Notes: generated by a model not told the origin, from the sequence alone. Positions 6,198 through 50,297 are shown, numbered from the stretch's first letter. The stretch: DNA of 64,000 nt from Nitrospirota bacterium (GCA_963733375.1 CAVTDB010000003.1:32001-96000); one strand, 5' to 3'. Translations and numbers: made by a program.

Positions 6198-6207
6198 ATA
6201 GCGCCCC

Positions 6208-9200: not shown

Positions 9201-9354
9201 CAGATTATGGGTACAGACGTCATCGGCGGGATGCTGGCGGCAACCGGCATCGCCATATTCTTAATCCCGATGATGTTCTATGTAATTGAGAAATTCAGCG
9301 AACGCGGGAAGAAAGTAACGCCGCCGAAATCCGGATGGGCAAGGACATGCGTAA
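6208..9354 (+). CDS. HAE1-family RND efflux permease, AcrB-like (split by frameshifts)
   Basis: [38 protein letters not shown] and [12 protein letters not shown] across ORFs 6208-8094, 8099-8653 and 8643 onward. End is approximate. Confidence 0.92.
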
Positions 9355-12622: not shown

Positions 12623-13937
12623 ATGAATAATCAGCCTTTAACTATTTCCTCGTGGCCGCGGGCCATCCTCCATGTGGACGCCGACGCTTTCTTTGCGTCA
12701 TGCGAGCAGTCCCTGCACCCCGAATACAAGAACAGGCCGGTTATAACGGGCAAGGAGCGCGGTATAGTAGCCGCGTTCAGTTATGAGGCCAAGGCACGGG
12801 GCGTGAAGCGGGGCATGCGGCTTTTCGAGGCGAAGAAAGTTTGTCCCGACGCCGTGATACTTCCGTCCGATTATGAAAGTTACGGGCTCTTCTCTTTGCG
12901 CATGTTCGAGATACTTCGCCGGTTTTCCCCGGACGTGGAGGAGTACAGCATCGACGAGGCCTTCGTGGATTTAACCGGATTAAGGAGGAGCTTCCACGGC
13001 TCCTACGGGTCCATTGCCGAAAAGGTCCAGCAGACAATCCAGAAAGAGCTGGACCTTTCCGTGTCGGTCGGGGTGAGCCTCTCCAAGGTCCTTGCGAAGA
13101 TTGGATCAAAAAACAATAAACCCCATGGCATTACCATTATTCCCGGACGTGAAATCCATACATACCTTGAAAAACTACCCAGTGGAAAGCGTCTGGGGCA
13201 TCGGGAGAAATACCGCCGCCTATCTTAATAAATTCGGGATAAAGACGGCCCTGGACTTTGCCGGAAAAGACGAGGCTTTTCTAAAGAAACACTTATCGAA
13301 ACCGTATCAGGCCGTATGGCATGAGTTAAACGGCAGGAGCGTGTTCCCGGTAACGACGGAGACCAAAACCACCTATCAATCCATCGGAAAATCAAGGACG
13401 TTTACCCCGCCCTCAAGCGACAAGTCTTTCGTTTACGCCCAGCTGTCGAAAAACCTGGAAAACGCATGCATAAAAGCCAGGCGCTATAACCTCGCCGCCA
13501 AGCGGCTAATCCTTTTCTTAAAGAGGCAGGATTTCAGTCATGACGGTCTGGAGATTTCGCTGACACGGCCCACGGCGTATCCCGTCGAATTATTCGAGAC
13601 GTTAAGGGAGGGATTTTCCCAGGTATTCAAATCTAAAGTCTTATACCGTTCCACGGGTGTCGTCCTTGCGGGCCTCATGCCGGAGGTCCAGGTCCAGTAT
13701 ACCCTCTTCGACGACACCGCGAAGATTAAGAAGATGGAAAAGATATACAGCGCCATCGACGCCTTATCGAATAAATACGGGAAACATACAGTCCAGCATT
13801 GTTCAAGCCTGCCGACTAAAATACAGGCCCAGCATGAGGGCGAGCGCGGGGACGTGCCCGTGAGGAAAGACGACCTGTTAAGGGGAGAGAACAAACGGCA
13901 GCGGATAGGAGTCCCGATGGTTTATATCAAGATTTAG
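12623..13937 (+). CDS. dinB: Y-family DNA polymerase IV (frameshifted near 13180)
   Basis: ILHVDADAFFASCEQ, SYEAKARGV, YSIDEAF and VWGIG; C-terminal little-finger region. Confidence 0.9.
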
Positions 13938-23835: not shown

Positions 23836-26800
23836 ACCTTCAGCATATCCTGGACTTTCTCAAGAAGCTTATTAATCTTATACGGCTTCTCCAGGACGAG
23901 CGGTCCTGCCCAGCCCCTCCATCAGCTCCTTCATTTCAATCTCATGGTAGCCGCTTAAAAGCAGGATACTTATGTCATCCCTTATATTCCGCATCTCTTT
24001 AGCCGCTTCGTCACCCCGTACATGCGGCATGATCAGGTCCATTATCACGGCGGAAACAGAGTCCCGGTTCTTCTTGAAAATTTCAATGCCCTCGGCCCCG
24101 TCCGCCGCGGTCAGCACTTTATATCCCACGGTCTCAAGCACTTTTTTCGCCATCAGCCGCGAATCCTCTTCATCGTCCACGACCAAGATAGTGCCTTTGC
24201 CATCCCGGATGTCTTCGGTCCCAGGCCTTATTCGCGGCCGCCTCCACCGGCGTCGCGGGGACCGGCAGAAGCACCCGGAAGGTCGCGCCGCAAGCTTCCT
24301 CGGTTTGAAGCCCGATCCCCCCGCCATGCCCGATCGCTATTCCGAATACAGCCGAGAGACCGAGGCCCCGGCCCATGAACTTAGTGGTAAAAAATGGGTC
24401 GAATATCCTCTTTCGCGTCTCCTGGCTCATGCCGCAGCCCGTGTCCGAGACCTCGACATATACGTATCCGCCCTCCGGGAGCCCGGCCGGATGCAGGGTG
24501 TCCAGGTACTGGCGGTCGGCATTTAAAATTCCCGTCGAGATACTTATGGCCCCCTTCTTCTCGCCCAGGGCATCCGAGGCGTTAATGATAAGGTTCATCA
24601 CCACCTGCTGCATGTTCTGCGGGTTGGCCATTATCACGGGGAGGCCGTCCGCCAGGCTATATTCAAGCTCGGCCTTTTTAGAGACGGAGGCTATAAGGAG
24701 GCGCGCCGGTTTCCTTTACTACGTCGTTCAACCGGACCGGCTCTTTATTCTCATCTTTTTTGCCGGTAAAGCTCAGTATCTGCTTTGAGAAACCGGCTAC
24801 CTTTTCCGCCGCGTCTTCTATGCCGGTCAAGTATTCCTTTACAAGGGAATCGTTGCCCAGGGCCCTTATCGCCAGGCCGGCGTTGCCTTCGACGGCGACC
24901 ATCATATTGTTTAAGTCGTGCGCTATGCCTCCCGCCAGGACCCGGAGGCTCTCCAGCTTCTGCGTCCTGAGCGCCTCGTCCTCGAGCCGTTTGCGCTCGC
25001 TGATGTCGCGTGTAACCTTTGAGAAGCCGCGCAGCCTCCCGTCCTCGTCATAAATGGCGGTAATAACCGTATTGGCCCAGAACGCGGACCCGTCCTTCCG
25101 TATCCGCAGGCCTTCTTCCTCCTCATAACTGCCCAGTGAGGCGGCATATTCGAGCTGCCGTGCGGGTTTTCCGTCGAGGACGTCTTCCCTGGGATAAAAG
25201 CACGAGAAATGCCTGCCTAATATCTCAGACTCGGCATAGCCCTTTATCCGCTCGGCCCCCTCATTCCAACTGACTACCTCGCCGGCCGGGCTGAGCATCA
25301 GGATCGCGTAGTCCTGGACGCCGGATACCATCAAACGGAAGCGTTCCTCGCTCTCCCTCAGCGCCTCGTCCGCCCGCCGCTTCTCGGTTACATCGTGAAA
25401 TACCAGGACCACGCCGATGATGTTGCCGCCGCCGTCGCGGATGGGCGCCGCGCTGTCCTCAATCGGTATTTCGCTTCCGTCCTTCCTGATTAAAGCCGTA
25501 TGGTTGGCAAGTCCCACGACATGGCCTTCCTGCAGCACTTTCACTACCGGGTTCTGTACGGGCTTACGTGTCTGTTCATTGATTATATGGAAAACCTTTT
25601 CAAGCGGCTGGCCTTCGGCCTCGGCGGATTCCCAACCCGTAGCCATGCTCCGCGACCGGGTTTAGAAACGTGACGCGGCCTTCTTTGTCCGTCGCGATTA
25701 CCGCATCGCCTATGCTCTTTAGCGTCACGCTCAGCTGCTCGCTCTGCCGCCGGATCTCAAGGTTCATCGCGTCGAGTTCGGCCGTACGCGCGCGGACAAG
25801 ACCTTCGAGTTCCTCCTCGGAGCGCTTCTGCTCGGTAATGTCGGTATTAGTGCCAAACCAGCGGACTACCTTCCCCTCCCCATCCAGTACCGGCATTCCC
25901 CGCGTCAGGAAGGGACGAAATACTCCGTCCGCGCCGCGCAGCGGAAAAACCATCTCGAACGGGTTCCCGGTCGCAATAGAAGCCCGCCATTTATCCATGA
26001 CCCCAGGCAGCGCCACGGGGTCGTGTACAGACTGCCAGCCCCATCCTTCCATCTGCTTTGGCGTGGCGCCTGTATACTCATACCAGCGCTGGTTATACCA
26101 GGATATCCAGCCGTCGGCGTTCGCCATCCAGCACAACTGGGGTATGGCGTCGGCAAAGGTGCGGAACTGCGTTTCACTTTCCTTAAGCGCCTCTTCCGAA
26201 CGGAACTTGGACAGGGCCACGGCCAGATAGCCCGCCAACCTCTCCCAATGGGCGACGGCTTCGGGTGTAAGAAGCCCCTTTCGCCGGTCGTTCAGCTGAA
26301 GGAGTCCCAGCCTTTCCTGGCCGACGCGCAGGGCAATCAGGGCCATCGACTCGTATCCCTCGCCGTTGCACCGGTTGCGCGTGCGGGCCTGCCTGTCGGC
26401 CTCGGTCGTGCTGGCGAGGAGTTCCGTAGTGCCGTTGGTCCAGAAATTGCCGAGTTCCGTGAAGAAGGGTTTCGACGGGTCGAACCGTTCCCGGATGACA
26501 TTCCCGCACATGCAATAAAGCACCGGGTTGCCGACTTCATCCCTGATAATCTCGCCCGCCCCGTCTCTGGCGCAGAGCGAGCTTTCCATCTGGATGAACT
26601 TCGCCGGAAATCCCCGCGCCTCGTAATAAGGGAAGTCGTCTCCATCTTTTAAGCGGATGCCCACGGCCTCGAAGCCGGATTGCTCCTTTATGAAGGTGAC
26701 GACCGACCGGACCAGGTCCCGCGTCCCGGTGCTCTGGTTTACTATGCGCAGGAATTCCACCGTTATCTTGCGTTCCTCTTCCTCCCGCCTGAGCTCGGTG

Positions 26801-27923
26801 ATATCGGTATTATAGACGCGTATGAACCCCATCTCGGGCGCATAAGATAACGACTGGTTGAAGACTAATCCGCCCACTTCGAAATCCCGTACAATTTTCC
26901 GCCTTTGGCCTTTTTTAAATTCGGCAATCACCGAAGGCCAATCTTTTAATAGCGGATGCCTGCCTGTTTCCAGGAATTCAGGGAAAGCCTTCTTCGCGGC
27001 GGAGTTTACGTATGTAATATTCCCTTCGATATCAGTCTTGATAATGAAGTTTGGGTTCAGTTCGGGAAATGACGCCAGATGGGCAACCCGCTCCTCCGCC
27101 CGCTTGCGCTCGGTGATATTATCAAAGACGGCCACGAAGTATTCTTTTGCCGGGCTGTAAACCGAGATGGAAAACCATATTCCCAAAGATCTTACTTCAG
27201 TTTCGAACCTCTCTGGCTGGCCCGTCAACGCGACGCGGCCGTAAATCTCGAATAACTCCGGATTCGATTCTCTTACCCCCGGAATGACCTCGGTCACTTT
27301 TTTACCGATTACGTTTTTCAGGCCGGTCAATTTTCCGAATGCGCTATTGACGTCGAGATAGACGAAATCTTCCGGACGGCCTGCTCATCATAAAGCATCC
27401 TGCAATATGCGAAGCCGTCCAACATGTTTTCAAAAAGCGACCGATAATGCTCCTCGCTTGCGCGTACTGCCTCCTCCGCCCGTTTGCGCTCGGCCTCCGC
27501 CCTGTGTTTTTCCGTTACGTCGTGGAATACGATGACTACCCCGATGGTAATCGCCGCCGGAGTCGCGGATGGGCGCTGCGCTGTCTTCGATGGGGATCTT
27601 TTTCCGCCCCGTCTTTCCTTATCAGGGTAGCAGCTATGGTTGGCCAGACCTACGACATGGCCTTCGCGCAGGACGCGTTCCACCGGGTTCTCGGTGAGCT
27701 TCTGCGTTTCTGCTCATTGATGATATGGAAAACCTTTTCGAGCGGCTGGCCTTCAGCCTCGGCGGATTTCCAGCCCGTCGCCCTCTCTGCGACCGGGTTC
27801 AGGAAACGTGACGTGGCCTTCCCTGTCCGCCGCGATTACTGTGTCACCTATACTTTCAAGGGTTACGCTGAGCCATTCGCGCTGCTGCCTGAGCTGTTCG
27901 GCGGCTTCCTTGTCTCTCATCAT
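23832..27923 (-). CDS. Large multi-PAS + GAF hybrid histidine kinase with C-terminal REC (about 6 frameshifted pieces)
   Basis: Several PAS/PAC domains, GAF with CMCGNVI, H-box LAGGIAHDLNN, FTTKFMGRGLGLS and REC ILVVDDE...MDLIMP. Confidence 0.85.
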
Positions 27924-28264
27924 TGCAGACCTCGGTTTTACATATCTTTATTTTTTGTCAGGGGATTTGCGGGACGAGTTGGCGTACGTGGACGGTTGCG
28001 AGTATGAAGGCCTTTCCCCGTGGACTTGACTGCAATAATTTTCAATTAATGCGAAGTTGTGTAATTGTATCATAATAAGTAAAAAAATAACAACCGTGGC
28101 GAATATAAAAATTTTCCTGAAATCGCGTACGCCTGGTTTTAATTAATTTACTTTAAACTGGACAAAATAATGACCCATATAATAATATTATCCGTCTTAT
28201 CAATTAAATCATAAATTTAATAAGGCCTGAACTCCACGGGAGATTATTATGGCTCGAGCACGGG

Positions 28265-28888
28265 ATGGATAATTTAATTGCGATGATCCTCGAGGGCGAC
28301 TGCGCCGCATCGGTTTCACAGGCCAAAGCCCTGCTCGAAGAGGGGGTCAGCCCAAAACAGATCGTCACGGGCGGCATCGAGGCCGCCATGTCCACGTTGA
28401 ACGCAAAATGCACCCTTGAACAGTTCAACCTGCTGGAGATCATGCTGGCGGGCCGCGCGGTCATGGAGATAATGAAATTTCTTAACCTGGCCGGCCCGGC
28501 GATGGGGCGGCAAGGGACAATCCTAACTGCCACCCGGCAAGGTGATATCCACGACTTAGGCAAAAACGTCCTTAAAACGGTACTTATCGGCAGGGGATAT
28601 AATGTCGTGGACTGCGGCAAGGACTGCCCTTTGCAAAAGCTTATCGAGACCGCGGTAAAGGAGCAGCCCCTGGCAGTCGCCATCAGCGGCCTTATTACCC
28701 CCATCATCCCGCTGGTGAGACAGGTAAAGGACCTCCTTTTCATCCGGGGCTTAAGCGACGTGAAGGTAATCGCCGGAGGCGCGGCGTTAAAGCAGTCATC
28801 AAATGACAGGCTGAATGTCGATTTCCTGGCTGAATCGGCATTTGACGTCCTTCCCTATCTTGACGGGTTGACCGGGGGGACGCCATGA
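28265..28888 (+). CDS. Corrinoid (B12-binding) protein, MtaC/MttC-like
   Basis: Four-helix cap followed by GDIHDLGKN (DxHxxG), ISGL and IAGG. Confidence 0.9.
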   Translation: MDNLIAMILEGDCAASVSQAKALLEEGVSPKQIVTGGIEAAMSTLNAKCTLEQFNLLEIMLAGRAVMEIMKFLNLAGPAMGRQGTILTATRQGDIHDLGKNVLKTVLIGRGYNVVDCGKDCPLQKLIETAVKEQPLAVAISGLITPIIPLVRQVKDLLFIRGLSDVKVIAGGAALKQSSNDRLNVDFLAESAFDVLPYLDGLTGGTP

Positions 28889-29893
28889 ACAGCCTGGAAC
28901 GGGTGAGCGCCGCCGTCAATTTCAGACAGACGGACCGGGTGCCGGTAATCGCCCAGGTGTTCGGCCACGCGGCAACGCTCTCTGGCGTGCCTGTGAGTGA
29001 TTACGTACGCGACGGCGGAACGCTTGCGAAGTGTCAGTTACAGGCACTCAAGCGGTACGGTTATGACGCGGTCTTCTCGGTGATGGACGTGAGCGTGGAG
29101 ACCGAAGCGGCGGGCTCGGTCTTGCGTTACCCGAAGACAATTATCCCGTGGTCGAGAAATACGCATTCTCCGCCGACGGCGACCGGGACGGCCTTTCCAT
29201 CCCGGACCCGCATAAAGACGGCCGGATGCCGGAAATGCTAAGGGCGCTGGAAATCCTGAGGCGGAAGACCAATGGCGAGACGCTGGTGGTCGGCTGCGTC
29301 ATGGGCCCATTTACGCTTACTACGCAGCTCCTCGGCATGGAGGACGCGCTTTATATGGCGGTTGACGACGCGCCACGCATGGAGCGTCTGATGGATTTTG
29401 CAACCGAGACTATTATCCGGTTCGGCAAGGCCCAGCTCGAAGCGGGAGCGCATCTGCCCATAGTCTTCAACCCTTCCGCATCGCCCGCCGTTATCCCGCC
29501 GCAATTTTTCCGGGAATTCGAACTGCCCAGGCTTGGGCGGATATTCAAGGCCTTCATGGAAAGCGGCTCCCTGGCAAACTGGCTTCATATCGCGGGCCCT
29601 GTCGGTCCGATCCTGCCGTATTATAATACCGCCGGAGTCACTATAGCGAACTTCGATTACTGCATAAGCCCCGAGACCGCGATGGAAGGACTCCCCGCCG
29701 TCTGCGTTGACGGAAATATCAAACCCGTAACTTTTGTGGACGGCACCCGGCAGACATCGAATCGGACGCCGTGAACCTGCTCGGCGCTTTCAAAAAGCGC
29801 GGAGGCTTTATCCTTTCCTCGGGCTGCGAAATCCCTCCCGAATCAAGACCGGAGAATATAGCCGCGATGGTCGATTCGGTCCGGGCAAGGTAA
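28885..29893 (+). CDS. MtaA/CmuA-like (URO-D family) methyltransferase homologue (frameshifted)
   Basis: MNSLERV, DRVPVI, VETEAAG, GPFTLT, NPSAS, GNIKP and FILSSGCEIP across three frames. Confidence 0.85.
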
Positions 29894-29899
29894 CCTAAG

Positions 29900-31489
29900 A
29901 TGCCGCAGCTCACGGTTATTACAAATGATATAGCGCGGAAGATATCCTTCAATAAAGGGGACTCTCTCCGCGAACTTTTATCCGGCGCCGGCCTCAGGGT
30001 CCGTTCCGGATGTCTGGGGAACGGGGCCTGCGGCCTGTGCCTTGTGCAGGTTGAGGCCGGGAATGCTGGCGAGCCGACCAAAACCGAACTCATAAGCCTG
30101 TCTCCCGAACAGCTGGCGGCTGACGTGCGACTTGCCTGCCAGTTAAAGCCGGAGGGCGACCTCCGCGTCAGGATTATAGACTCCGCCTCGACATCCCATT
30201 GGCGGGACCTGGGCCCTGGCCCATTCACCCCGGCGGATATCGGCCCTTCGGCCGGTGCGTCCTCCGAAACCGCATATGGCCTGGCGGTGGACCTGGGGAC
30301 GACCCATATCAGCCTCTCCCTCTGGGACTTAAACCTGGAAGCAGGCTTGCCGGGCGCATTGGCTTAAACCCCCAGTCCATCTGCGGCCAGGACGTGGTGA
30401 CGCGCTTGATCGCCGCCGGGCAGTCGCCGGAAAATGCAGGCAAGATCGCCAGGATGCCGCTCGACGCCCTCTACGAGGGCTTACTGGATATGTGCTCACG
30501 GGAAGGTTTCGGCCTCCGGGACGTGGTCCGGGCCGTCATCGTAGGCAATACCGCCATGCTTGCCCTGCTGACGGGATCAGACCCCCGGATATTACTTCTG
30601 CCTGATTCCTGGACACTGCCGGTCGACCTGAACCAGGACTACGCCAAAGCCTGGGCGGAGGCCATCGGGCTAAGTCCAAAGGCGGTGGTGGATGTAGTTT
30701 CACCTCTCGCGGGGTTCGTGGGCTCAGACCTTCTTGCCGGAGTGGTCGCCACGCGCCTGACGGAGCGGCCGGGCAGCCTTTTGATAGATTTCGGGACGAA
30801 CTCGGAGATGGCGCTCTGGGACGGCGGGACGCTATGGGTGACATCCGCCGCGGGCGGGCCGGCGTTTGAAAGCTGTGGGATGCAGTGCGGCATGCCCGCG
30901 GAGCCGGGCGCAATCTACCGCGTTACTCGGCAACAGGAAGGCGAAATGGATTTTCAGGTAATAGGCGGCGGCGAGGCCAAAGGGCTCTGCGGTTCAGGAC
31001 TGGTAGACCTTATTGCCTTGCTGTGCGACTGCGGGGGAATTGAAGCCCACCGGGAAGTTTGATTCCGGGGACGGTTTTGCCGTCCAGAAGGAAGGTCCGG
31101 CAATCCGCCTCACCAAGGGAGACGTGGACATGTTTCAGCGTGCGAAGGCGGCTATCGGCGTCGGGATAAAGACGCTCTTGGGGAAGGCGCAGATAGGAGC
31201 GGACGGCCTTCGGCGCGTATGCGTATGCGGGGTGTTCGGCGCCCGGCTGAATACCCGGAACGCACGGAAAGTCGGTCTCCTGCCGGATATCCCGGACGAA
31301 CGGATCGAACTTTGCGGGAATACCGCGCTGGCCGGATGCGAAAGCCTGCTCCTGTCGCCGGAATGGAAGCGGAGTTGGCAGCGGCTTAGAGGACGGACGG
31401 CCATCATCAACCTCTCACATATACCGGATTTCGAGGAGCTTTTCCTGGAGAACCTGTACCTGCGGCCGATGAAGGTGGACAAGGCATGA
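29900..31489 (+). CDS. RACo-type ASKHA corrinoid activator (DUF4445) with 2Fe-2S domain (frameshifted)
   Basis: CLGNGACGLC...RLAC, AVDLGTT, DFGTNSEM, SAAGGPAFE, GLCGSG and GNTALAG. Confidence 0.9.
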
Positions 31490-34238
31490 AAAATATACAA
31501 TACGACAGCGCACAGTTGTTCGAGGCCTTCGTCAAATCGGCCCAGTATCTTGTCCGCCTCAATTCACGAGCTGGACGTCTGGGAACACTTAGGCAAGTTT
31601 ATAGCGACTTACTTTCCCGCGGATTGGACCGCCCTGGTGCAGCAAGACCCCGTGGACGGGGTCTTTGTCCAGCACTGCACACTGCCCGAAGAGGCCGCCG
31701 CGCTGATCATCCGCACGGATGGAGTAAAGACACTCATAGCCGACGCGCTTGACACCGGCTTTCTGGCAACGGAGGTCATCCTCACCCCTCGGCCATCCAT
31801 GACCGCCTTCCTTCCCATCGCGGGGGAACAAAAAGTCATACTGATAGGCCACGAGACTACCGGGCCGATTTCGAAAGAGCTGCTTAATACCTACCTCGCG
31901 ATAGCCGGCATGGCAGCCACGACCTTCGAGCGGCTACGTGCCGAGGAAGCGCTCCGGCTGGCGGGCAGCTATAACCGGAACCTCCTGGAAGCGAGCCTCG
32001 ACCCGCTCGTCACCATCGGCCCGGACGGAAAAGTGACGGACGTGAACGCGGCGACGGAGACGGTTACAGGATATTCCAGGGACCGCCTCATCGGGACCGA
32101 CTTCTCGGACTATTTCACGGAGCCGGATAAGGCGCGCGCGGGGTACCAGCAGGTTTTCCGCGAGGGCGCGGTCAGGGATTACCCGCTTGAAGTAAGGCAT
32201 AAAGACGGACGCATAACGCCCGTGCTTTACAACGCGTCGGTCTATAAAGACGACTCCGGAAACGTCATAGGCGTGTTCGCCGCCGCCCGCGATATTACGG
32301 AGATGAAGCGGGCGGAAGGTATACTCAAGAACCTCGCTTCCCAAAACAAGCTTATACTGGATTCCGCGGGCGAAGGCATATTGGGGATGGACGCGTCTGG
32401 AAGGCACACGTTCGCAAACCCCGCGGCGGCCAGGATGCTGGGCTGGGAGGCTCGAAGAGCTTATCGGCAGGCAGAGCCACTCGATATGGCACCATACCAG
32501 GCCGGACGGCAGCCCATATCCTGAAGAGGAGTGTAATATCCATGCCTCGTCCCGGTACGGCGTCGCCCACCATGAATCCGAAGAGGTGTTCTGGAAAAAG
32601 GACGGCACTTCCATCCCGGTCGAGTATACGAGCACGCCGGTCTGGGAAGACGGCAAGCCTGTCGGGGTAGTCGTCACCTTCAACGACATAACCGAGCGCA
32701 AGCGGGCCGAGGAAGCGCTGCAGGTATCTGAAAAACGTTACCGCATGCTGTTCGACACAATCGACGAAGGCTTCTGTATCGTCGAGATGATATTTGATGA
32801 ACACGAACGTCCGGTCGATTACCGCTTTCTGGAGATTAATCCGTCGTTCGAGAAACAAACGGGATTAGTCGGTGCGCAGGGCAAGAGAATGCGCGAACTT
32901 GCCCCGCAGCACGAGGAGTTTTGGTTTGAGACTTACGGAAAAATCGCGTTAACTGGCGAACCGGCCCGTTTTCAGAACCTTGCCGAACAACTGAGCCGGT
33001 GGTATGACGTTTACGCCTTCCGTTTCGGCCAGCCGGAAAACCGGCAGGTTGCCATCCTTTTTAACGACATCACCGAGCGCAGGCTTACGGAAGAGGCGCT
33101 CCGGGAGAGCGAGGAGAAGTTCAGACTCCTGGTTGACAGTGCGCAGGACTATGCGATTGTAATGCTGGGCACCGACGGACGGGTTGTGAGCTGGAACGCG
33201 GGCGCACAGAGGATGAAGGGATATACCGCCTCTGAGATAATCGGAAAACATTTTTCGTGTTTTTATCCCGAAGACGATGTCCGCGCCGGAAAGCCCGGGC
33301 GTGAGCTTAAAATCGCCTCGGAGACCGGGAGGTTTGAAGACGAAGGCCTGAGGGTGCGCAAGGACGGGTCACACTTCCAGGCCAATGTCGTAATCAACGC
33401 CATCAGGGACAAGTCCGGGAAACTGCGCGGCTTTTCAAAGATTACCAGAGACGTTACCGAGCGGAAACAGGCCGAGGACGAGATAAAGAAGCTGAACGAG
33501 GACCTGGAGCAGAGGGTCGTGGAGCGGACGACGGAAGTTACGGCGGTTAACAAGGAACTTGAGGCTTTTACATATTCGGTGTCTCACGACCTGCGGGCCC
33601 CGCTTCGGCACATACACGGGTTCGTTGACCTTCTTATCCAGAACTCCAGCCAGAGCCTGGACGATAAAGGCAAGAGATATCTTACGACGATATCCAAGGC
33701 GGCATCCCAGATGGGGAACCTTGTGGACGACCTCCTTACCTTTTCCCGGATGGGTCGCACCGAGATAAAGAAGCATTCCATAGACCTGGAAAACCTGGTT
33801 CACGGCGTGATCGACGAGATGAGGTATGAGCTGAGGGAAAGGGATATAGAGTGGAAGGTAGGCAGCCTCGCGCCGGTTTACGGCGACCCATCCCTGCTCA
33901 GGCTTGTGATGGTAAACCTGATATCCAACGCGGTGAAGTTCACAAGGCATCGGGACAAGGCGGTGATTGAGATAGGCTCCTATACCGAAGCCGGCGGCGG
34001 GGATGTGGTGTACGTCAAGGATAACGGCGTAGGGTTCGACATGCGGTACGTGGACAAGCTCTTTGGCGTGTTCCAGAGGCTCCACAGTATCGAGGAGTTT
34101 GAAGGGACCGGCATCGGGCTCGCCAATATCCGGAGGATTATAGGCCGGCACGGCGGCAGGACCTGGGCCGAGGGCGCGTTAGGCACGGGTGCGGCATTTT
34201 ATTTTTCCTTGCCTTCTATGGACGGGGATAATGTATAA
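31486..34238 (+). CDS. Cytoplasmic sensor histidine kinase with GAF-like N-terminus and PAS domains (frameshifted)
   Basis: ATGA overlap with the RACo stop; about four PAS/PAC domains; FTYSVSHDLRAPLRH, DNGVGFD, FQRLH and GTGIGLA. Confidence 0.88.
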
Positions 34239-34282
34239 TCTATAATGACGTATGATTTTACGGGTTATAAGAGAGGAAACCG

Positions 34283-34750
34283 ATGACAAGGAACGCTGAA
34301 TTAAAAAGGATACTGCTTGCGGACGACAACCCTAACGATGTCGAGCTGACGCTTGAGGCGCTCGAACAATATAACCTGGCAAACGAGGTCATGGTGGTAA
34401 AGGACGGGGCCGACGCGCTCGATTACCTTTACAGGCGCGGGGCGTACGATGAGCGCACGGGCGGCGATCCGGCGGTTATACTGCTGGACCTGAAGATGCC
34501 CAAAGTGGACGGGCTGGAGGTGCTTCGGCAGATAAAATCGGACCCGGCTCTTAAATGCGTCCCGGTCGTCGTCCTGACCTCCTCCCACGAGGAGAGGGAC
34601 CTGGTTGACAGCTACAACCTGGGCACGAACGCATACGTGGTAAAGCCCGTGGACTTCAAGGACTTCGTAGAGGCGATAAAGGGCCTGGGCTCCTTCTGGG
34701 CGGTATTGAACGAGCCTCCGGCGGGATGCGTCAGAAGAGAGAAAAGCTAA
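34283..34750 (+). CDS. Single-domain response regulator (Rcp1-like)
   Basis: ILLADDN, LLDLKMPKVDGLEVL, VVVLTSS and YVVKPV. Confidence 0.92.
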   Translation: MTRNAELKRILLADDNPNDVELTLEALEQYNLANEVMVVKDGADALDYLYRRGAYDERTGGDPAVILLDLKMPKVDGLEVLRQIKSDPALKCVPVVVLTSSHEERDLVDSYNLGTNAYVVKPVDFKDFVEAIKGLGSFWAVLNEPPAGCVRREKS

Positions 34751-34751
34751 A

Positions 34752-36353
34752 ATGGCACATAAGCATCAGCTTCGCATACTCCATCTGGAAGACAACCCGC
34801 TCGATGCCGAGCTGGTTGCCGCCGCGTTTGATACCGCCGGCCTGAAATGCGGGATAACCCGTGTCGAGACGGAGCAGGCATTCACCTCCGCCCTGGAATC
34901 AGGCGGCATGGATTTAATCCTGGCCGATTACTCCCTGCCTTCTTTCGACGGCGTTTCCGCCCTGAAACTCGCGCATGAAAAATGCCCGGACATACCTTAT
35001 ATCTTCGTTTCCGGCCAGATGGGCGAGGACATCGCCGTGGAGTCGCTTAAGCTGGGGGCGACGGATTATATCCTTAAGAACAACCTGAGCAGGCTAATGC
35101 CATCGGTGCGCCGCGCCCTAAATGAGGCGCTGGACAGGCGCGAGCGAAAGAAGGCGGAGGAAAAGACTGCCGCGGCGGAGAAGGCGCTCTGGGAATCGGA
35201 AGCGAGGATGCAGAAGCTGGAAAGCCTCAGAGCCCTTGCCGGGGGCATAGCCCACGACCTGAATAACCTGATGGTGGCCGTGGATGCGAACGCGGGGCTG
35301 GCGCTTAAGGCGTTAGCTCCCGACTCTCCCGCGCGCGAGCTGATAGAGGGCATCGAGAAGGCGGTCGCCAAGGTATCCACTTTCTCGAAGCAGATAATGA
35401 GCTTTACGGGAAAGTTCGAGGCGATGAAGGAGCCGGTCAGCTTGAACGAGGCTGTGGAGGACACGTCTCATTTCCTGCTCGCGTCCATTTCGAAGGACGC
35501 CGCACTTGAATTCCGCCTCTCGGACGGCCTTCCGGTCATCATGGCCGACCCGCAGAACATCCAGCAGGTGGTTATGAACCTGATTTTAAACGCCTCCGAC
35601 GCCCTTGAGAAAAGAAAAGGGAAGATCGAGGTCTGCACCGGGAAGCTCTTTGCTGAGCGTCCATACCTGGACTCGATGCACTTGGGGAAGGACCTGGCTG
35701 AGGGAGAGTATTTGTTCATAGAAGTCTCCGACAGCGGCTGCGGCATGGACGAAGAGACAAAGGGGCGGGTATTCGACCCGTTTTATACCACGAAGTTCAC
35801 GGGCCGCGGGCTTGGGCTCTCCGCCGTTTTCGGGATAGTAAAAGGGCATGGCGGGGCGATTGGCCTGACGAGCGCGAAGGGGCGCGGCACGAGTTTCAAG
35901 GTACTCCTTCCGATACCGGAAGAGCCTTTGCAGGCCGGAGTCGAAAAGCAGGAATCAAAGGACGTCTGGTCCGGGGGCGGGACTATACTTGTAGTGGACG
36001 ACGACGAAAGCGTCCGCATGCTTACCAAAAAAGTCCTGGAGACCGCAGGCTATAAAGTACTCACCGCCCCCGACGGACAGCAGGGGATTGAAATTTTCAG
36101 GCAGAGCGGCGAATCGATATCTTTAGTCCTGATAGACCTGATAATGCCGCAGATGCGGGGCGACGAAGCGGCAAAGGAGATGCGGAAATTAAAAGACGGT
36201 ATAAAAATTTTATTCCTCAGCGGGTATAGCGACCTCCAACTGGCGGACATGGCCGATGGGCCCGGTAAGGCGGCGATTATGATGAAGCCATACAAGGTGA
36301 CAAAGCTGCTTCAAAAAGTTCAGGAGGTCCTGGAGCAGAATGTCCGTCAATAG
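34752..36353 (+). CDS. REC-HisKA-HATPase-REC hybrid kinase
   Basis: ILHLED...ADYSLP, GIAHDLNN, YTTKFTGRGLGLS and ILVVDDD...IDLIMP. Confidence 0.92.
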   Translation: MAHKHQLRILHLEDNPLDAELVAAAFDTAGLKCGITRVETEQAFTSALESGGMDLILADYSLPSFDGVSALKLAHEKCPDIPYIFVSGQMGEDIAVESLKLGATDYILKNNLSRLMPSVRRALNEALDRRERKKAEEKTAAAEKALWESEARMQKLESLRALAGGIAHDLNNLMVAVDANAGLALKALAPDSPARELIEGIEKAVAKVSTFSKQIMSFTGKFEAMKEPVSLNEAVEDTSHFLLASISKDAALEFRLSDGLPVIMADPQNIQQVVMNLILNASDALEKRKGKIEVCTGKLFAERPYLDSMHLGKDLAEGEYLFIEVSDSGCGMDEETKGRVFDPFYTTKFTGRGLGLSAVFGIVKGHGGAIGLTSAKGRGTSFKVLLPIPEEPLQAGVEKQESKDVWSGGGTILVVDDDESVRMLTKKVLETAGYKVLTAPDGQQGIEIFRQSGESISLVLIDLIMPQMRGDEAAKEMRKLKDGIKILFLSGYSDLQLADMADGPGKAAIMMKPYKVTKLLQKVQEVLEQNVRQ

Positions 36354-45071: not shown

Positions 45072-48000
45072 TCAGTTAGGGTTGATAGTTACTTGTAAAT
45101 AGACTTTGCCCTCGCCGCCCGGCGCCAGGGTGCCGCTAACGATGAACACCGCGCTACCCCCGGACAGGTTGTCCGAGACCGGCGTTGCGGTGGCGTAGGT
45201 CGAGCTTGCGTTCCCGGCCCTCATGCTCCCGGTAACATACGACGTGTAGGTAGGGATATTGTCGGTTATGATTATTAAAGCGGCGTCGCCCGTGCCGTCG
45301 TTTTTGTAGTCTACCGTGTACGTAAGCGTGTCACCCGGTTTGGGCGTGGGCTTGTCTACCGTTTTTGTCAGCGTTATGTGCGGGTTCGTTACCGTAACCC
45401 CCGCAGTGCCGCCGGTGGATTGGACGGGGTATCCGGTCGGCGTGAACGATGCGTTATTGAGATACGTGCCGGATGCCGCAGCCGCCGTGGACTGGAAATT
45501 AAGCGTCAATGCGCCGGTCGCGGGAAGCGTCCATGAGCCGCTCCAGGTAATCGTTCCGGTCGTACCGGCAGGGTTGGCCGTCGTCATGCCCGTGGTCGTG
45601 CCCGTCCGGTATGAGAACCCGGCGGGGAGCGTGTCCGTGACGCTTGTGACCGGTATGCTCAAAGGTCCTGTGTTCGTCATGGTGATCGTGTAGCTTACCG
45701 TCCCTGCCGCCGTGGTAGTGGACGGGGACGCGCTTTTGGTTATGCCGAGCGCAAAAACGGTCACGGGCGCGGTGTCTCCGGTGGGGTAAGTCGTCTGCCC
45801 GCTAACCGTCCATGTAGCGTTATTGTAATATGTGCCCGTTGTCGGGCCTGCATATGCGTGGAAGACGAGCGTCAGCGAGCCGCCGTTCCTGCCGATAGCC
45901 CAGTTCCCGCTCCACGTAAGCACCTGGCCGGCCACGGCCGGGTTGTTAGTCGTCGTGCCCGTGGTCGAACCGCTTATGTAAGAGAACCCGGCCGGCAGCG
46001 TATCTACAACTCTTGTGACGGTCCTGTTGTTCCCGCTGTTGTTTGTCATCGTGATGGTATAGACCACCTCTCCGCCGGGCAGTACCGCCGAAGGGCTGAC
46101 GGTCTTGTTTATGTCATAGGTGGAGACGATGACCGGCGCCGTATTGGAGATAGTCTGCACCCCGCAGCCCGTCGCCGTGAATGTCGCAGTGGGGTTGTTA
46201 TACGTACCGTTCGTGTTGTTCACGGTGACATCGAAATTGAGCGTTAAGGTGCCGTTGGCGGGCAGAGTCCAGGAGCCGTTCCATGTAAGCGTTCCGGTCG
46301 TCCCGGTCGGGTTGTTCGTCGTCATGCCGTCGGTCGTGCCGCTGACATACGTGAAATTGCCTCCGGTCGAGTTGAGCGTATCCGTCACCCGTGTGACGGG
46401 TATGTCAGACGGGCCTGTGTTTGACAGCGTAATCGTGTAGGTTACCGTCCCGGCGTGGGCGACCTCGCCCGGAGCCACCGTCTCGGATATGCCCAGGTGG
46501 AAGACCGTAACAGGCGCGGTATCCCCGGTTGACTGGACCGGATAGCCGGTCGGGGTGAAAGAAGCGTTGTTGTTATACGTGCCATCCGTACCGCTCGCCG
46601 TGGCGGAGAAGTTAAGCGTCAGCGTGCCGCCGTTCGCGGGCAGCGTCCATGAACCGTTCCATGTAAGCGCCTGGCCGGCCACGGCCGGGTTGGCGGTCGT
46701 CATGCCGGTGGTCGTGCCCGCATTGTAGGAGAACCCCGCCGGGAGCGTATCCGTTACGCTTGTGACCGGTATCGACGCGCTGCTCGGGTTTGTCATCGTG
46801 ATGGTATAGGATGCGGTCCCGCCGGCAATGACCGAGGCTGAGGCCGCGGTCTTGGCTATGTTTAAATGAAAAACCGTAACGGGGGCGGTCGGGCCCGTGG
46901 TAGTGTCCGGATATCCGGTGGCGGAAAACGACGCGTTGTTGTTATACGTGCCGTCGGTAGAGCTCGCCGCGGACTGGAAGTTGAGCGTGAGGGTTCCGTT
47001 CGCGGGCAGCGTCCAGCTTCCGTTCCACGTGAGCGTCTGCCCGGCCACGGCCGGGTTGGCCGTCGTCATGCCGGTCGTCGTGCCCGTCTTGTATGAAAAG
47101 CCCGCCGGGAGGGTATCTACCACGCTTGTAACTGTCGTGGCGGAGCCGCTGTAGCTGGTCAGGGTCATCGTATAGCCTACGGTACCGCCCGCTATGACCG
47201 CTGACTGGCTCGCGGTCTTTGCCATTTTTAGGGTAAATACGCTGACAGGCGCGGTCGGTCCTGTGGAGGTGCTGGGGTATCCGGTGGCTGCGTAAGATGC
47301 GGTGTTGGTGAAAGTCCCCACGGACGAGCCCGCGGCGGACTGGAAGTTGAGCGTGAGGGTGCCGTTCGCGGGCAGCGTCCAGCTTCCGTTCCACGTGAGC
47401 GTCTGTCCGGCCACGGCCGGGTTGGCCGTCGTCATGCCGGTAGTCGTGCCCGTCTTGTAGGAAAAGCCCGCCGGGAGGGTATCTACCACGCTTGTGACAG
47501 TTGTGGCGGAACTGCTGACGCTGGTCATTGTAACCGTGTATGTTACCGTCCCGCCGGTCTGGACAGTGGACGGGGTTACCGTCTTAGCCGCCGAGAGGTT
47601 AAGTATCGCGTCGGTATCCGTGGCGGTGTTGTTTGTCAGGACCGGGTCCGTAGTGTTGTACGGGGGATTGACCGTGACGGAATTCACGATTGTCGGGCTG
47701 CCTCCCTGTACGGTCCCTTGCAGCGTCAGCACCGCACTCTGCCCGGAGGCGAGGTTGATCCCGCTCCAGTACTGCGTCGTGCCGTTGTATATGCCCCTGT
47801 CCGGGCTGAAGACCGGGCTCTGGAGGTTTGCCGGGATTGTGTCCCTTACCCAGCAGCTCGATATGCTGCTCGGCCCGTTGTTGGTGACTGTTATGATATA
47901 GGTGGCCGCGCTTCCGGGCAGAGCCGTCGTCTGGTTGTCGGTCATTGCGATTGACAGGTCCGCCTGGGGGGTGAGGGCGTCGCTGTCAGTGGCCGCGTTG

Positions 48001-50297
48001 TTCGCTGAATTGGTGTCCGTAATTCCCGGCGGCGGCGTTACGGTCGCGGTAACAGAGAGCGTCCCCGTGGCCGCCGGGTCTATGGTACCCGCAATGGTAA
48101 GGGTAACGTGCTGCCCTGACGCGAGGCTCAGGCCGGTCCACGCGCCGGTGCCCGAGTTGTACGCCCCGGTCGAAGCCGTATATAAAGGGGACTGTACCGA
48201 AGTTGGCAGGGGAACACTCAGCGTAAGGCTCGTAACGGCGCCCGGCCCGTTGTTGGTGACCGTGACGGTATAGCTGTCGGCGTTGCCTGGTATGATGCTC
48301 GTCACGCCGTCCGTTATTGCTACGCCGAGGTCCGCGTTGACGGGAGATGTGCTTCCGATTGCCTGCACGGAAGGGTCCGTCCCGGCGGTGCCGTTGGGAT
48401 AGATGGTGGCCGTGTTGGTTATCGGCAGGGAGGCGGTCGGGCACGTCGATTTGAAAACGACCGTGACCGTATCGCCGGCATTGACCACGCCCGATGCCCT
48501 GCCCGGGCCGTTTATCAGCCGGCCCGGGGTCGAAAAAGGCATGTTCCCGCCCACGTCGGCGACGGCGCCGCCGTTCATTTTCGTGGACCCGGCTACATAT
48601 GCCGTGCCGGCGGGTATGCCGTCAAGAAGCCACGACCCGGCAGTGTTCGTCAGGCCGGTATTTGAAGCCGTTATGGTCCATGTGATAGTCGCCGTGCCGC
48701 CGACGGTGCTCACGCTCGCGGTCTTGGCGGTATCGAGCCTGTCTACCAGCGTCGCGGTCGTGTAGTTGGAGGTCGTGGTAGCCTGGAGAGGAGCTGACAG
48801 AGCAGTTGGTTAAAAAATTGTACGTCCAGCTCGAATTGGTGACATAAGACGCAGCCGCGGGCGAGGGCGGCACCGCATTAACCGCTGCCTGGTACTGGAC
48901 CCACAACTGGGCGCCCACGGCGATGCCGCCGATATTGAAGCCGGCGGATGGGTTTGCGCCGGACAATGTGGTATAGGTGACGCCGTCCGTGCTGGTTTTC
49001 GCGGTCCCAGGGATGAACGATGTATACGGCGGCGGGACTGATGTATATATCACGTTTTGCGCGCTTGTCGAGCCGGCGGTGTTGTCGAGCCTTGTAGTGT
49101 ATGTCAGGGTATCGCCCACATGGGTCGTTGTCTTGTCGACGGTCATGACGGTTGTGGGGAAAGTTGGCGCGCCGACGTCCACCTGTATTCCGATGGAGCT
49201 TATGGTGTACGCGTCCTGGTTTGAAGTACCCTGGGCGCTGGCCTCGGTCTGACCGTGCTGGAGTATGCCGGAGACGTCAACGTTTGTTATGTCCCAGCCA
49301 TGACGCGTCCCATTTGTGGCCGCGCCGCTGCCAGTGGTGGTGGTAGGTGTGTCGTTCAGGCTGCCGAACGTCCCGGACGTATCGACGGTGCCGTTGTCCT
49401 TGTTTATCTGGCTTGCGAAGAAGTTGCTCGCAAGGTTGTTCGGTCCGGATACCGGCTGCATGGCGCCGACCGGCCCGAAAAGCATCTGGTCGCCAGCGAT
49501 GAACGAGTCGCCCTCCATGGCGCTTACCATCAGGCGGGCGTTTATAGTGCCGGCGCTGTTCACGCAGAAGCCGCTCACCGCGTATCGCGGAGGAGTACCC
49601 GCTCGCCGCGTGAACTCGCAGCCGACGAATACAGACATGCTCCTTATCGGCAGGGTGGTGTTCCTGTAGACCACCGCGAGCGTCCAGCCCGCGCAGTTGC
49701 TGTTGTTTTCATTCGGGTCGCTCGTCGCTGGGACGCCGCCCACGGTGTATGTCCCGGCGCCGGCTGACTGCACGTAGGCGGTCACGTCCGCCGAAGCCGA
49801 CATAGTAGTATTGGCCTCCGGTATCCCCGGTACGTCTTTTGCCGTCGCGGCATCAGGCGCGACTGAATAAGTGCCGGAGGGTGTCGCCATCGTTACGCTG
49901 CTGTCCAGCGACGACGACACGTTCTGGTTTGCGGTCTGCATAACAGCCGCCCCAGATAAGCTCGGCGTAAAGGATGGTGCTCCCCGCCGGTATGTTGAGC
50001 TGCGCTGCTGACGAGTTCTGGGACCACGTGAGTGTCGTCCCGGCCGGATAATGTGCCGACCTGTGAAGAAGGGTTGGTGGTTATGAATGCGCCTATGGCG
50101 CCCGCCGCTCCAGGGTTGTTCTGGTTCGCTATCTTGTCGAGACCGAGCGTGTTGCCGGTAAAGGTCATTGCGCCCGTGTCGACCGCCGTGAAACGCGTGA
50201 TATATGAGGCATGCGCCGGGACCGCGAGACAAAGGACCGCCATCGCCGCAAAGCATATCGCCGTAATGGCCGTGACTAAAACTTTTGACTTTCGCAT
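45072..50297 (-). CDS. Large DUF11-repeat adhesin, about 1740 aa (frameshifted into 3 or more ORFs)
   Basis: Signal peptide ending AHA, N-terminal head (TFTGNT, AGWTLAVVY, EGD, GWDI), about 11 Thr-rich DUF11 domains. Confidence 0.85.
45390..47600 (-). repeat. Six tandem repeats of about 360 bp / 120 aa (DUF11)
   Basis: Recurrent DTLPAGFSY..GTTTGMTTANPAVAGQTLTWNGSWTLPANGTLTLNF; DNA at about 46970-47130 and 47330-47490 is near-identical. Confidence 0.85.

Follow-up and report, generated by a model that had tools for sequence, protein, structure and literature searches.

The 64,000-nucleotide (nt) stretch of Nitrospirota bacterium DNA considered here (GCA_963733375.1 CAVTDB010000003.1:32001-96000, hereafter the window) contains at positions 28265-36353 a group of six genes built around a corrinoid protein and a sensor kinase. 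All six are on the + strand, where the listing of open reading frames (ORFs) and a Pfam scan placed them at the coordinates given in a preliminary description made from the DNA alone. The first four genes, designated C, U, R and K, with the N-terminal domain of K denoted N, form the conserved cassette that is the subject of this report. The genes and domains are as follows.

28265-28888, + strand: C, a His-on corrinoid protein with a four-helix cap and a Rossmann B12 domain; intact ORF of 207 amino acids (aa).
28885-29893, + strand: U, an MtaA-like URO-D-fold methyltransferase; spread over three frames with breaks near 29137 and 29743.
29900-31489, + strand: R, a RACo-type reductive activator with Fer2, Raco_middle and RACo_C_ter (ASKHA) domains; spread over three frames with breaks near 30337 and 31029.
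31486-31936, + strand: N, a predicted divergent GAF domain at the N-terminus of K; a break at about 31569 falls inside N.
31937-34238, + strand: the remainder of K, with PAS repeats, HisKA and HATPase_c; break near 32451.
34283-34750, + strand: receiver-only response regulator of 155 aa; Response_reg at 72.9 bits, without an output domain by Pfam.
34752-36353, + strand: hybrid kinase of 533 aa arranged as REC, dimerisation region, HATPase_c and REC; by Pfam, Response_reg in two stretches and HATPase_c at 70.8 bits.

In full, K is a PAS histidine kinase (31486-34238), and Pfam matches to HisKA (52.4 bits) and HATPase_c (72 bits) within 32586-34238 place it among the two-component histidine kinases. 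The hybrid kinase scored below every NCBIfam cut-off, its top models being CckA-like. ATGA overlaps at 28885 and 31486 are evident from the ORF ends, a 6-bp gap at 29894-29899 was read directly from the DNA, and a 1-bp gap lies at 34751. The ORFs, domains, overlaps and gaps of six co-oriented, tightly packed genes are thus all where the preliminary description had put them; what it overlooked is that U, R and K are frameshifted in this window. Its statement that a substrate methyltransferase (MT1), a folate enzyme and a transporter are absent also agrees with the Pfam scan, which found none of these within 28265-36353.

Relatives of U were collected by searching a U alignment against one genome per species; 89 were found and the best 80 were kept as loci. 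A reverse set of 66 metagenome loci was seeded with N alone. Linkage was counted from six-frame hidden Markov model (HMM) matches, as called ORFs are sometimes on the wrong strand (for example upstream in locus L016). N was located downstream in 68 of the 70 genome loci with at least 2200 nt of room, the exceptions being L065, which looks degenerate, and L076, in which U stands alone. C was located upstream in 76 of the 77 genome loci having at least 700 nt of room. The N HMM picked out 70 ORFs spread over 68 of the 80 loci, each of them directly behind R or U. In the N-seeded metagenome loci R or U was adjacent in every case with at least 300 nt upstream (58/58), while U and C were each found wherever there was enough room (29/29 and 25/25, respectively). 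The recurrent families among 1069 neighbour ORFs of the 80 loci are U (78 loci), C (67), K (66) and R (64), and the next family, a receiver of about 149 aa, occurs in only 13. No MT1, folate methyltransferase or transporter family is conserved beside the cassette among the neighbour families listed for the 80 loci; the Pfam summaries of these neighbours list 25 of 46 downstream and 25 of 85 upstream families, and a methyltransferase at a single locus could escape them.

The expectation of a conserved trio and kinase without MT1 is therefore borne out by the neighbourhoods, the trio and a transducer headed by N being near-obligate partners in both directions. The core is a four-gene cassette of C, U and R followed by an N-headed transducer. 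C and U overlap by 4 nt in 47 of 69 loci, and the spacing between R and K is from -10 to +20 nt in 46 of 50. The window and 79 of the 80 loci have a single U per cassette. The exception is L057, where a further, divergent C-U pair is found a few kb upstream of the main cassette (L057:218-2007); at L066 a second RACo-like gene lies a few kb upstream of the main cassette (L066:5439-7265).

According to the record labels of the 80 loci, carriers are mostly Nitrospirota and delta-proteobacterial or Desulfobacterota-type metagenome-assembled genomes (MAGs). Further carriers are labelled Acidobacteriota, Chloroflexota, Actinomycetota, Planctomycetota, Chitinispirillaceae/Chitinivibrionales, Fermentibacteria, Endomicrobiales, Armatimonadota and Gammaproteobacteria, together with three loci in Acetobacterium, including the cultured A. 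tundrae DSM 9173 (L059), and one in a Dichloromethanomonas MAG. Six archaeal MAGs (Methanocellaceae, Methanoregula(ceae) and Methanomicrobiales) also harbor it, bringing the cassette under roughly a dozen phylum-level labels. Methanocellaceae and Methanoregula are hydrogenotrophic methanogens and not methylotrophs. Within its own phylum the cassette is patchy: across 41 related genomes, only G000, G001 and G007 contain a close copy of C (100, 91 and 79%), the rest giving at most 34%. Contigs 90-95% alike on the cassette were present in all four peat or wetland sequencing runs examined.

The output domains of the transducer vary. After five N-proteins running off contigs had been dropped, 57 complete N-proteins were scanned, of which 45 contained HATPase_c, 38 HisKA and 8 a receiver, with GGDEF, SpoIIE, HisKA_2 and HWE_HK in 3 each. 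Sensory modules typically show this combination of an unchanging input domain and exchangeable outputs. A co-directional ORF is present within 150 nt downstream of K in only 26 of 64 loci. The 44 ORFs downstream of K include 22 receivers, 11 HATPase_c proteins, one sigma-54 activator and one IclR-type protein. Just upstream of C (74 ORFs) the commonest domains are again the receiver (7) and HATPase_c (7), sigma-54 activators number 2, and no methyltransferase or pterin-binding family is found among the 25 families listed. In G007 a multihaem cytochrome c of at least 882 aa, and not a response regulator, is located directly downstream of the sensor kinase (L014:10852-13497). The response regulator and hybrid kinase, which the preliminary description had counted as parts of the module, are present in the window but do not belong to the conserved unit; they are a variable accessory, one of several arrangements.

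C has the architecture of a cap followed by a Rossmann B12 domain. Pfam B12-binding (PF02310) matched at 59.7 bits and the cap domain B12-binding_2 (PF02607) at 20.8 bits, just below its cut-off of 23, while the cassette HMM gave 317 bits over positions 4-211. The best solved match to the C profile was MttC (7xcn; positions 6-206, E 3.2e-29), and the His-on motif DxHxxG is present in the window protein as DIHDLG. C53, D99, H101, G104, C126 and S146 are invariant in 58 of 58 C sequences and C122 almost so. In alignments with solved structures C53 falls on the Phe of ‘ekF’ in MttC (7xcn) and of ‘dlF’ in T. thermophilus MetH (8ssd, 9cbp), a position we take to be that of F708 of E. coli MetH, presumably lying over the methyl group on the upper corrin face. 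The family sequence DCGKDCP stands against DLGrDVP in MttC and NLGIKVP in MetH. In photolysed CarH a cap residue, a histidine, ligates cobalt after the signal; by analogy, the thiol at the C53 position could ligate or guard the cobalt. C missed all curated NCBIfam cut-offs, as did U and R: its TIGR02370 score was 112.9 against a cut-off of 215.3, and the MtaC, MtbC and MtgC equivalogs were far below theirs. Nor does it match CarH, the NF052513 model giving 28.7 bits against a cut-off of 400 and Pfam finding no helix-turn-helix or MerR DNA-binding domain. The CarH cap motif is W-x9-EH, and the cap consensus of C lacks Trp. With no CarH-type match, light, which had been offered as one possible stimulus, is disfavoured.

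Pfam URO-D (PF01208) was found on two pieces of the window U. In an intact orthologue of 336 aa it matched at 245.4 bits over profile positions 3-345, indicating a full-length fold. The best solved relative of U is MtaA (4ay7, E 6.6e-26), in which LHICG is aligned to LHIAG of U. The His-Cys-Cys zinc site is thereby His-Ala-Cys: H235-I236-A237 is invariant in 18 of 18 sequences and the distal C315 is kept. All NCBIfam cut-offs were missed (TIGR01463, 164.4 against 235.4; MtaA, 118.4 against 400; MtbA, 119.2 against 600). The subfamily is sharply delimited and comprises at least 120 protein clusters, those listed having 66-100% identity to the U of G001; the three among them with an organism label are two Nitrospirota and one Anaerolineae. 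Mean column identity over the 18 aligned U sequences is 76%, with NWLHIAGP and SSGCEIPPE invariant, and U is the most conserved component of the cassette. In the accessible portion of a study of UroD-superfamily enzymes, S-methyltransferases are described as having His-Cys-Cys and O-methyltransferases as having one or both Cys replaced (PMC10418091). Because U shows the pattern ascribed there to O-methyltransferases, it may itself be the substrate-side enzyme. As far as the available text of a second study goes, the zinc-free UroD-fold enzyme CdmB can present halomethanes to Co(I) (PMC13222342), and MtsA, judged by the title of a paper cited in PMC10805028, catalyses both half-reactions. The label ‘MT2-like’ first given to U thus holds as a statement of homology, but with His-Ala-Cys the accompanying claim that no substrate methyltransferase is present may not hold as a statement of role.

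The Fer2, Raco_middle and RACo_C_ter domains of R are found by Pfam on three pieces in three frames in the window. An intact orthologue shows the domains of a RACo/RACE protein (PF00111, 37 bits; PF17651, 108 bits; PF14574, 205 bits), while the AcsV model gave 241 against a cut-off of 800. By family membership, R would reduce Co(II) to Co(I) with ATP. In genome loci with room, R is of full length in 59 of 70, reduced in 7 and absent from 4. In five loci it has been cut down to the 2Fe-2S Fer2 domain and fused in frame to N-HisKA, with HATPase_c seen in four of the five. These single ORFs, of the form Fer2-N(GAF)-HisKA-HATPase and having lost the ASKHA ATPase part of RACo, are as follows.

L019:9112-10665
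L022:8942-11011
L023:9149-10687
L030:9094-10683
L093:9047-10663

By this fusion the sensor polypeptide carries a module whose known target is corrinoid cobalt. A short R is also seen in metagenome loci L098-L101, L104, L110 and L121. Cassettes of the form C-U-N, with no RACo gene between U and the sensor, are found in genome loci L027, L038 and L043, labelled Thermoleophilia, Actinomycetes and Anaerolineae, and in metagenome loci L124, L126, L127 and L131.

The preliminary description had called the N-terminal domain of the kinase unusual, and so it proved. The first approximately 150 residues of K (1-160 were searched) have no Pfam match at E<=0.01, GAF included; where Pfam detects GAF in N-proteins, it does so in later domains of some members and not in N. 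An AlphaFold2 model of N built from 62 sequences has a predicted local distance difference test score (pLDDT) of 88 and a predicted template modelling score (pTM) of 0.84, with secondary structure in the order alpha-alpha-beta-beta-alpha-alpha-beta-beta-beta-alpha. Foldseek returned 17 matches at E<=0.001, the top ones being GAF domains with template modelling (TM) scores of 0.55-0.66 (best 3ci6_B, E 5.6e-5, TM 0.64), and ESM Atlas structures matched with TM 0.74-0.79 to GAF_2 regions. Because the model, Foldseek and ESM Atlas agree, N is predicted to be a divergent GAF domain, and it is specific to the cassette. Q20, Y21, F92 and P110 are invariant. Conservation is 0.61-0.71 in H1, E5 and H5 (the C-terminal helix) and lowest, at 0.28, in helix 3, which is the usual lid of the GAF pocket; this gives a soft hint, from the alignment, of selection on a protein surface of N rather than on a pocket. 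Searched against 1.84 billion representative proteins, the N profile matched 367 at E<=0.001 and 205 at E<=1e-30, and in nearly all of the 150 representatives listed (proteins of 135 to 1921 aa) the match fell at residues ~1-158.

Three other ideas about N were set aside. A His-Cys pair seen in three Nitrospirota orthologues was considered as a methyl acceptor, but the positions are not conserved in the 62 sequences. A photoglobin does not fit, N being an alpha/beta GAF domain and not a globin; in the accessible part of the photoglobin paper, B12-globin fusions are described without URO-D or RACo (PMC8717448). A PocR-type sensor as in MecA was not found by Pfam among the genes of the window, G007 and G001.

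Complex modelling of C with the kinase N-domain, which had been put forward as a check on the sensing idea, was carried out with protein only and 58 paired rows. The C+N prediction scored 0.33, the best of three controls reaching 0.02; runs agreed in at least 75% of contacts and the pLDDT of the partner was at least 79. Of 80 solved complexes 58 reach the pass mark used, as do 2 of 110 mismatched pairs; at scores of 0.60 or less, however, only 7 of the 80 solved complexes do so, and both of the passing mismatches. The prediction thus passes weakly and would add a little to a prior that the linkage and the Fer2-N fusions had already raised.

U, R and K each run through three reading frames in the window, equivalent to two 1-nt frameshifts per gene. 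Searches by tblastn with intact orthologues placed the frame changes near 29137 and 29743 in U, 30337 and 31029 in R, and 31569 and 32451 in K, and the family HMMs agree. The cassette HMMs matched U in pieces at positions 1-88, 79-290 and 283-335 (frames 1, 0 and 2), R at positions 3-155, 151-391 and 380-539, and N at positions 2-21 and 20-145, the second at 150 bits. In a DNA alignment with the same-genus genome G001 (4586 columns, 88% nt identity), the frame breaks turn out to be indels of one base each; one compensating indel pair lies at 31362 and 31383, and no stop-codon substitutions or larger deletions were found in the 4.6 kb. Intact orthologues of C, U (336 aa) and R (532 and 535 aa) are present in G001 and in G007, which belongs to another genus of the same family; the K orthologue is 697 aa long in G007, whereas in G001 the contig ends within it. 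The contigs 90-95% alike, from four wetland or peat runs of four studies, show a one-base difference at 29133 (1 run), 30336 (4/4) and 31028/31031 (3 runs), this comparison having no rows listed for the breaks at 29743, 31569 and 32451; the runs matched the window with small shares, at most 0.17 of words. Elsewhere in the window an AcrB-family transporter (5045-9533, + strand) is split over overlapping frames, one piece covering only profile positions 806-1020 of 1021, a Pol IV gene (12623-13937, + strand) has IMS and IMS_C in overlapping frames, and there are many further overlapping same-strand ORF pairs. The source is a 2.39-Mb MAG of 26 contigs rated 81% complete.

Since the orthologues are intact, AcrB and Pol IV are split likewise and the MAG is rated 81% complete, the six breaks in U, R and K are probably indel errors of the assembly. 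Alternatively, the cluster could be a decaying pseudogene in this genome, inactive and with six real 1-nt indels, a reading that would concern the window only and not the family. Two frameshifts in each of three genes would be expected of decay, C in the window also deviates from near-invariant residues just ahead of DxHxxG, and the related contigs from other samples lack the indels, which fits a change private to the strain. Decay does not, however, account for the like splitting of the unrelated AcrB and Pol IV genes or for the many overlapping same-strand ORF pairs; a low completeness of 81% despite few contigs is the pattern of assembly indel errors, and no stop-codon substitution or larger deletion has accumulated across 4.6 kb at 88% identity. 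We regard decay as improbable.

The deviation in C concerns 28500-28560, where the window is 3 nt shorter than its relatives (AC and A are inserted in 4/4 runs). Ahead of DxHxxG the window C reads …TATRQGDIHDLG against the consensus …IATLEGDVHDLG, differing at a near-invariant Ala/Glu; this may be a further sequence error or real divergence. Contigs of all four runs also pile up at 32665-32864 and 33065-33264, with a summed depth of up to 1640 and many loose ends or joints. The pile-ups are conserved PAS-linker stretches (DITERKRAEE-type) of many unrelated PAS kinases and not a repeat of the locus.

We propose that the cassette would function as a four-part corrinoid-based sensory module feeding a phosphorelay. 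U would add a methyl group to the cobalt of C, or remove one, in answer to a methyl donor or acceptor in the environment, the donor being at a guess of the O-methyl or halide type. The state of C, whether Co(I), Co(II) or CH3-Co(III) and with the cap closed or displaced, would be read through direct docking to N, the GAF domain found only in the cassette. N would in turn control the transmitter fused to it, in this window a PAS histidine kinase that would hand phosphate on to the receiver-only response regulator and the downstream hybrid kinase. R would re-reduce Co(II) to Co(I) with ATP, thereby keeping the sensor responsive. What was observed is which genes are present, their obligate linkage in both directions, outputs that vary, fusions of Fer2 with N, the GAF fold and residues peculiar to the family; the C-N contact, the methylation or redox state as signal and the nature of the stimulus are what we infer. 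A sensory rather than purely catabolic role fits the varied outputs, the Fer2-N fusions, the cap cysteine and the weak C+N pass. The close spacing of C with U and of R with K, which points to translational coupling, the prevalence of receivers and further kinases downstream of K, and the occurrence in lineages of hydrogenotrophic methanogens also count in its favour. We put at about 0.5 the probability that this is a B12-based chemical sensor in which N reads the cobalt state that U sets on C and that R resets. Of the interpretation originally offered for the locus the linkage of the trio with a transducer is retained, but not light as stimulus, the response regulator and hybrid kinase as part of the core, or the absence of a substrate methyltransferase in any sense beyond homology.

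A more specific form of the proposal is an enzyme-coupled B12 chemosensor, which would be the first of its kind. Here the cassette’s own MtaA-like enzyme would methylate or demethylate C in proportion to a methyl donor in its surroundings, C53 would either cover or ligate the cobalt or else be displaced from it, the private GAF domain would read the conformation and drive kinases, cyclases or phosphatases, and RACo would act as an ATP-driven reset. In peat and sediment the donors could be methoxylated aromatics, methyl halides or methylated chalcogenides. We hold this version tentatively, at a little under even odds.

Several observations weigh against a cobalt-reading sensor. N has no invariant Cys or His to act as a cobalt ligand, and in the score range of the C+N prediction most passes are false unless the pairing was already a likely one. 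The cassette offers no route for the demethylation of CH3-Co(III) unless U is reversible, leaving the reset unexplained, and R itself, as counted above, is lacking in 4 of 70 loci and shortened in another 7. In this window, frameshifts also break up three of the four core genes. Pterin_bind has 3 matches in each of G000, G001 and G007, so that a folate-type methyltransferase may be encoded elsewhere; an argument from a missing genomic folate methyltransferase was dropped as uninformative for the same reason. Lastly, catabolic corrinoid clusters can have a kinase-regulator pair of their own, an example in the accessible text being MecA/MecD of the mec cassette (10.1101/2021.08.30.458270).

The last two points lead to the reading of the cassette as an ordinary catabolic or assimilatory corrinoid methyltransferase module, for O-demethylation or for methyl-S, methyl-Se or halomethane metabolism, with its own regulator. 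N would then bind a small ligand, K would tune expression via a regulator encoded elsewhere, and the second methyltransferase would also lie elsewhere, as the Pterin_bind proteins of G000, G001 and G007 would allow. GAF domains commonly bind small ligands, and the Foldseek matches of N include cAMP-, haem- and bilin-binding GAFs; yet the usual pocket-lid helix is the least conserved element of N (0.28 against 0.61-0.71). Precedents can be drawn from what is accessible of three published accounts: the mec cassette pairs corrinoid methyltransferases with a presumed substrate sensor, MecA (a PocR-type histidine kinase), and MecD (10.1101/2021.08.30.458270), Type 1 mlp clusters are still proposed to be metabolic although they lack a folate methyltransferase (PMC10418091), and zinc-free UroD-fold MT1 enzymes such as CdmB exist (PMC13222342). 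Against this reading, N is fixed to C and U in the N-seeded loci, while its outputs include GGDEF and SpoIIE, domains that do not regulate a particular operon. DNA-binding partners are scarce among the flanking ORFs (the two found downstream and the two upstream given above), no second methyltransferase, transporter or downstream pathway gene is conserved, and the Fer2-N fusions are hard to explain for a mere regulator. On balance a metabolic module seems unlikely, but it is a serious competitor.

A different sensory reading is that of a redox, oxidant or gas sensor, in which oxidation between Co(I) and Co(II) on C by O2, N2O, NO or redox poise would be the signal, R would report the supply of ATP and reductant, and U would be priming or structural only. 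According to the available portion of PMC6739815, Co(I) oxidises very readily, and R serves to undo this; in some variants all that is left of R is its 2Fe-2S domain, joined to the sensor, and the family-specific C53, C122 and C126 of C could form a thiol or Co-S redox switch. Such a sensor should nevertheless keep R and tolerate change in U, and the opposite is found: U is the most conserved component (76% over 18 sequences) and occurs in 29/29 N-seeded loci, while R is lost or reduced in some. Because U is the most conserved part and R is dispensable, the redox reading fits less well, and we consider it quite unlikely.

The sensor proposal can be set beside known corrinoid systems. The cassette resembles methanol- and methylamine:coenzyme M (CoM) and O-demethylase systems (MT1, corrinoid protein, MT2 and RamA/RACE) in its His-on cap and Rossmann corrinoid protein, its methyltransferase of the URO-D family close to MtaA, its RACo/RACE activator with Fer2 and ASKHA parts, and its tight packing. 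It differs in having one methyltransferase, with His-Ala-Cys for His-Cys-Cys, in missing the NCBIfam equivalog and subfamily cut-offs, in having no conserved second methyltransferase or transporter, and in its obligate linkage to a private-GAF transducer. Type 1 mlp clusters (Kountz & Balskus, PMC10418091) are, as far as the accessible text describes them, likewise widespread in anaerobic bacteria and archaea, but have two or three Mlps with His-Cys-Cys, are mostly from Firmicutes, lack conserved synteny and are linked to genes of sulfur and selenium metabolism. The cassette keeps to the order C-U-R-N, includes a sensor and has a single U, with His-Ala-Cys; in the mlp paper the word ‘sensor’ is absent and ‘kinase’ occurs only in names of metabolic enzymes (PMC10418091). 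It is not a Type 1 mlp cluster, which would combine no fewer than two UroD-family genes, Mlp2 and Mlp3 among them, with a corrinoid protein and RACE; this judgement is made by gene count.

In the mec cassette, too, genes for a corrinoid protein, a RACo-type activator, a histidine kinase and methyltransferases of the MtaA/CmuA type are clustered. In what is available of its description it comprises ten genes, among them those for a transporter, an MtrH-type methyltransferase, a kinase with a PocR domain and a DNA-binding partner, and close homologues are confined to a few dechlorinators (10.1101/2021.08.30.458270). The present cassette has four genes, and MtrH, the PocR kinase and the transporter are absent from the six genes of the window and from the neighbours in G007 and G001, which sets it apart from mec. 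The MAG of a dichloromethane degrader (L061) carries it as a separate C-U-R-N unit. The Cdm chloromethane system, in the accessible part of its description, is alike in that the zinc-free UroD-fold CdmB presents substrate to the Co(I) of a partner corrinoid protein, but cdmBCA includes the folate-side MTII CdmA and no sensor, and CdmB is placed with O-demethylases by its authors (PMC13222342). U scored best with MtaA-type models and is set apart from CdmB by description, not by sequence.

Among sensory systems, H-NOX proteins with partner histidine kinases show that stand-alone sensor proteins dock onto adjacent kinases or cyclases. The cassette shares with them a cofactor sensor protein placed beside a transmitter whose output varies between species; it differs in that the cofactor state would be set enzymatically by U and R and in that the transmitter has a dedicated receiving domain, N. 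The ligation of cobalt by a cap residue in CarH is a role that C53 could play in C. Like the cassette, CarH/AerR and photoglobin-B12, in what is available of their accounts, use a cap and Rossmann B12 module for signalling and not catalysis (PMC8717448; PMC11796333). The cassette differs from these B12 systems in the low CarH model score (28.7 bits against 400), the lack of Trp in the cap and the lack of a DNA-binding or globin domain, and its methyltransferase and reductive activator point to Co(I)/methyl chemistry and not to adenosyl photolysis.

Ahead of the cassette, the scan for promoters and terminators gave weak consensus matches only, among them the following.

28159-28188, + strand: sigma-70-like promoter match 5' of the C gene, with 10 of 12 hexamer positions matched; weak, by consensus only.

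The promoter-scanned region contained 9 sigma-70-like sites against 4.3 +/- 1.9 in shuffled sequences, and a match of this kind does not by itself speak for function. The whole window was without Rfam matches, and thus without a cobalamin riboswitch ahead of C. Upstream and divergent from the cassette, a PAS-domain ORF of 576 aa and an abutting ORF of 118 aa are located on the - strand (25600-27683), possibly as one frameshifted gene; the pair is not conserved beside the cassette in other genomes. Further downstream, on the - strand (45072-50256), an ORF of 544 aa without a Pfam match overlaps the gene for a very large protein of DUF11 repeats (9 repeats, 366 bits). Together these are probably one giant surface protein, possibly split.

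No description of the cassette was found by a full-text literature search, which most subscription journals and supplements lie outside, so that an earlier mention is possible. The known parts of B12 in signalling are those of a chromophore that responds to light (CarH, AerR) and of a ligand for riboswitches; a Co(I)/methyl-Co cycle as input to two-component, c-di-GMP or PP2C signalling was not described in the literature searched. Found under roughly a dozen phylum-level labels, including lineages of hydrogenotrophic methanogens, the cassette is not a curiosity of one MAG. It also has a bearing on annotation, as such cassettes would pass for metabolism in surveys where mtaA-, mtxC- or ramA-like genes are taken to indicate methylotrophy; one survey of wetland methylotrophy, in its accessible portion, uses substrate-nonspecific mtxA/mtxC and activase genes as supporting evidence (PMC10805028). 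The presence of the cassette in the cultured Acetobacterium tundrae DSM 9173 makes the sensor hypothesis directly testable. If it is true, cobalt-carbon chemistry would carry signals in the dark, as a currency that anaerobic bacteria and methanogens share through horizontal transfer.

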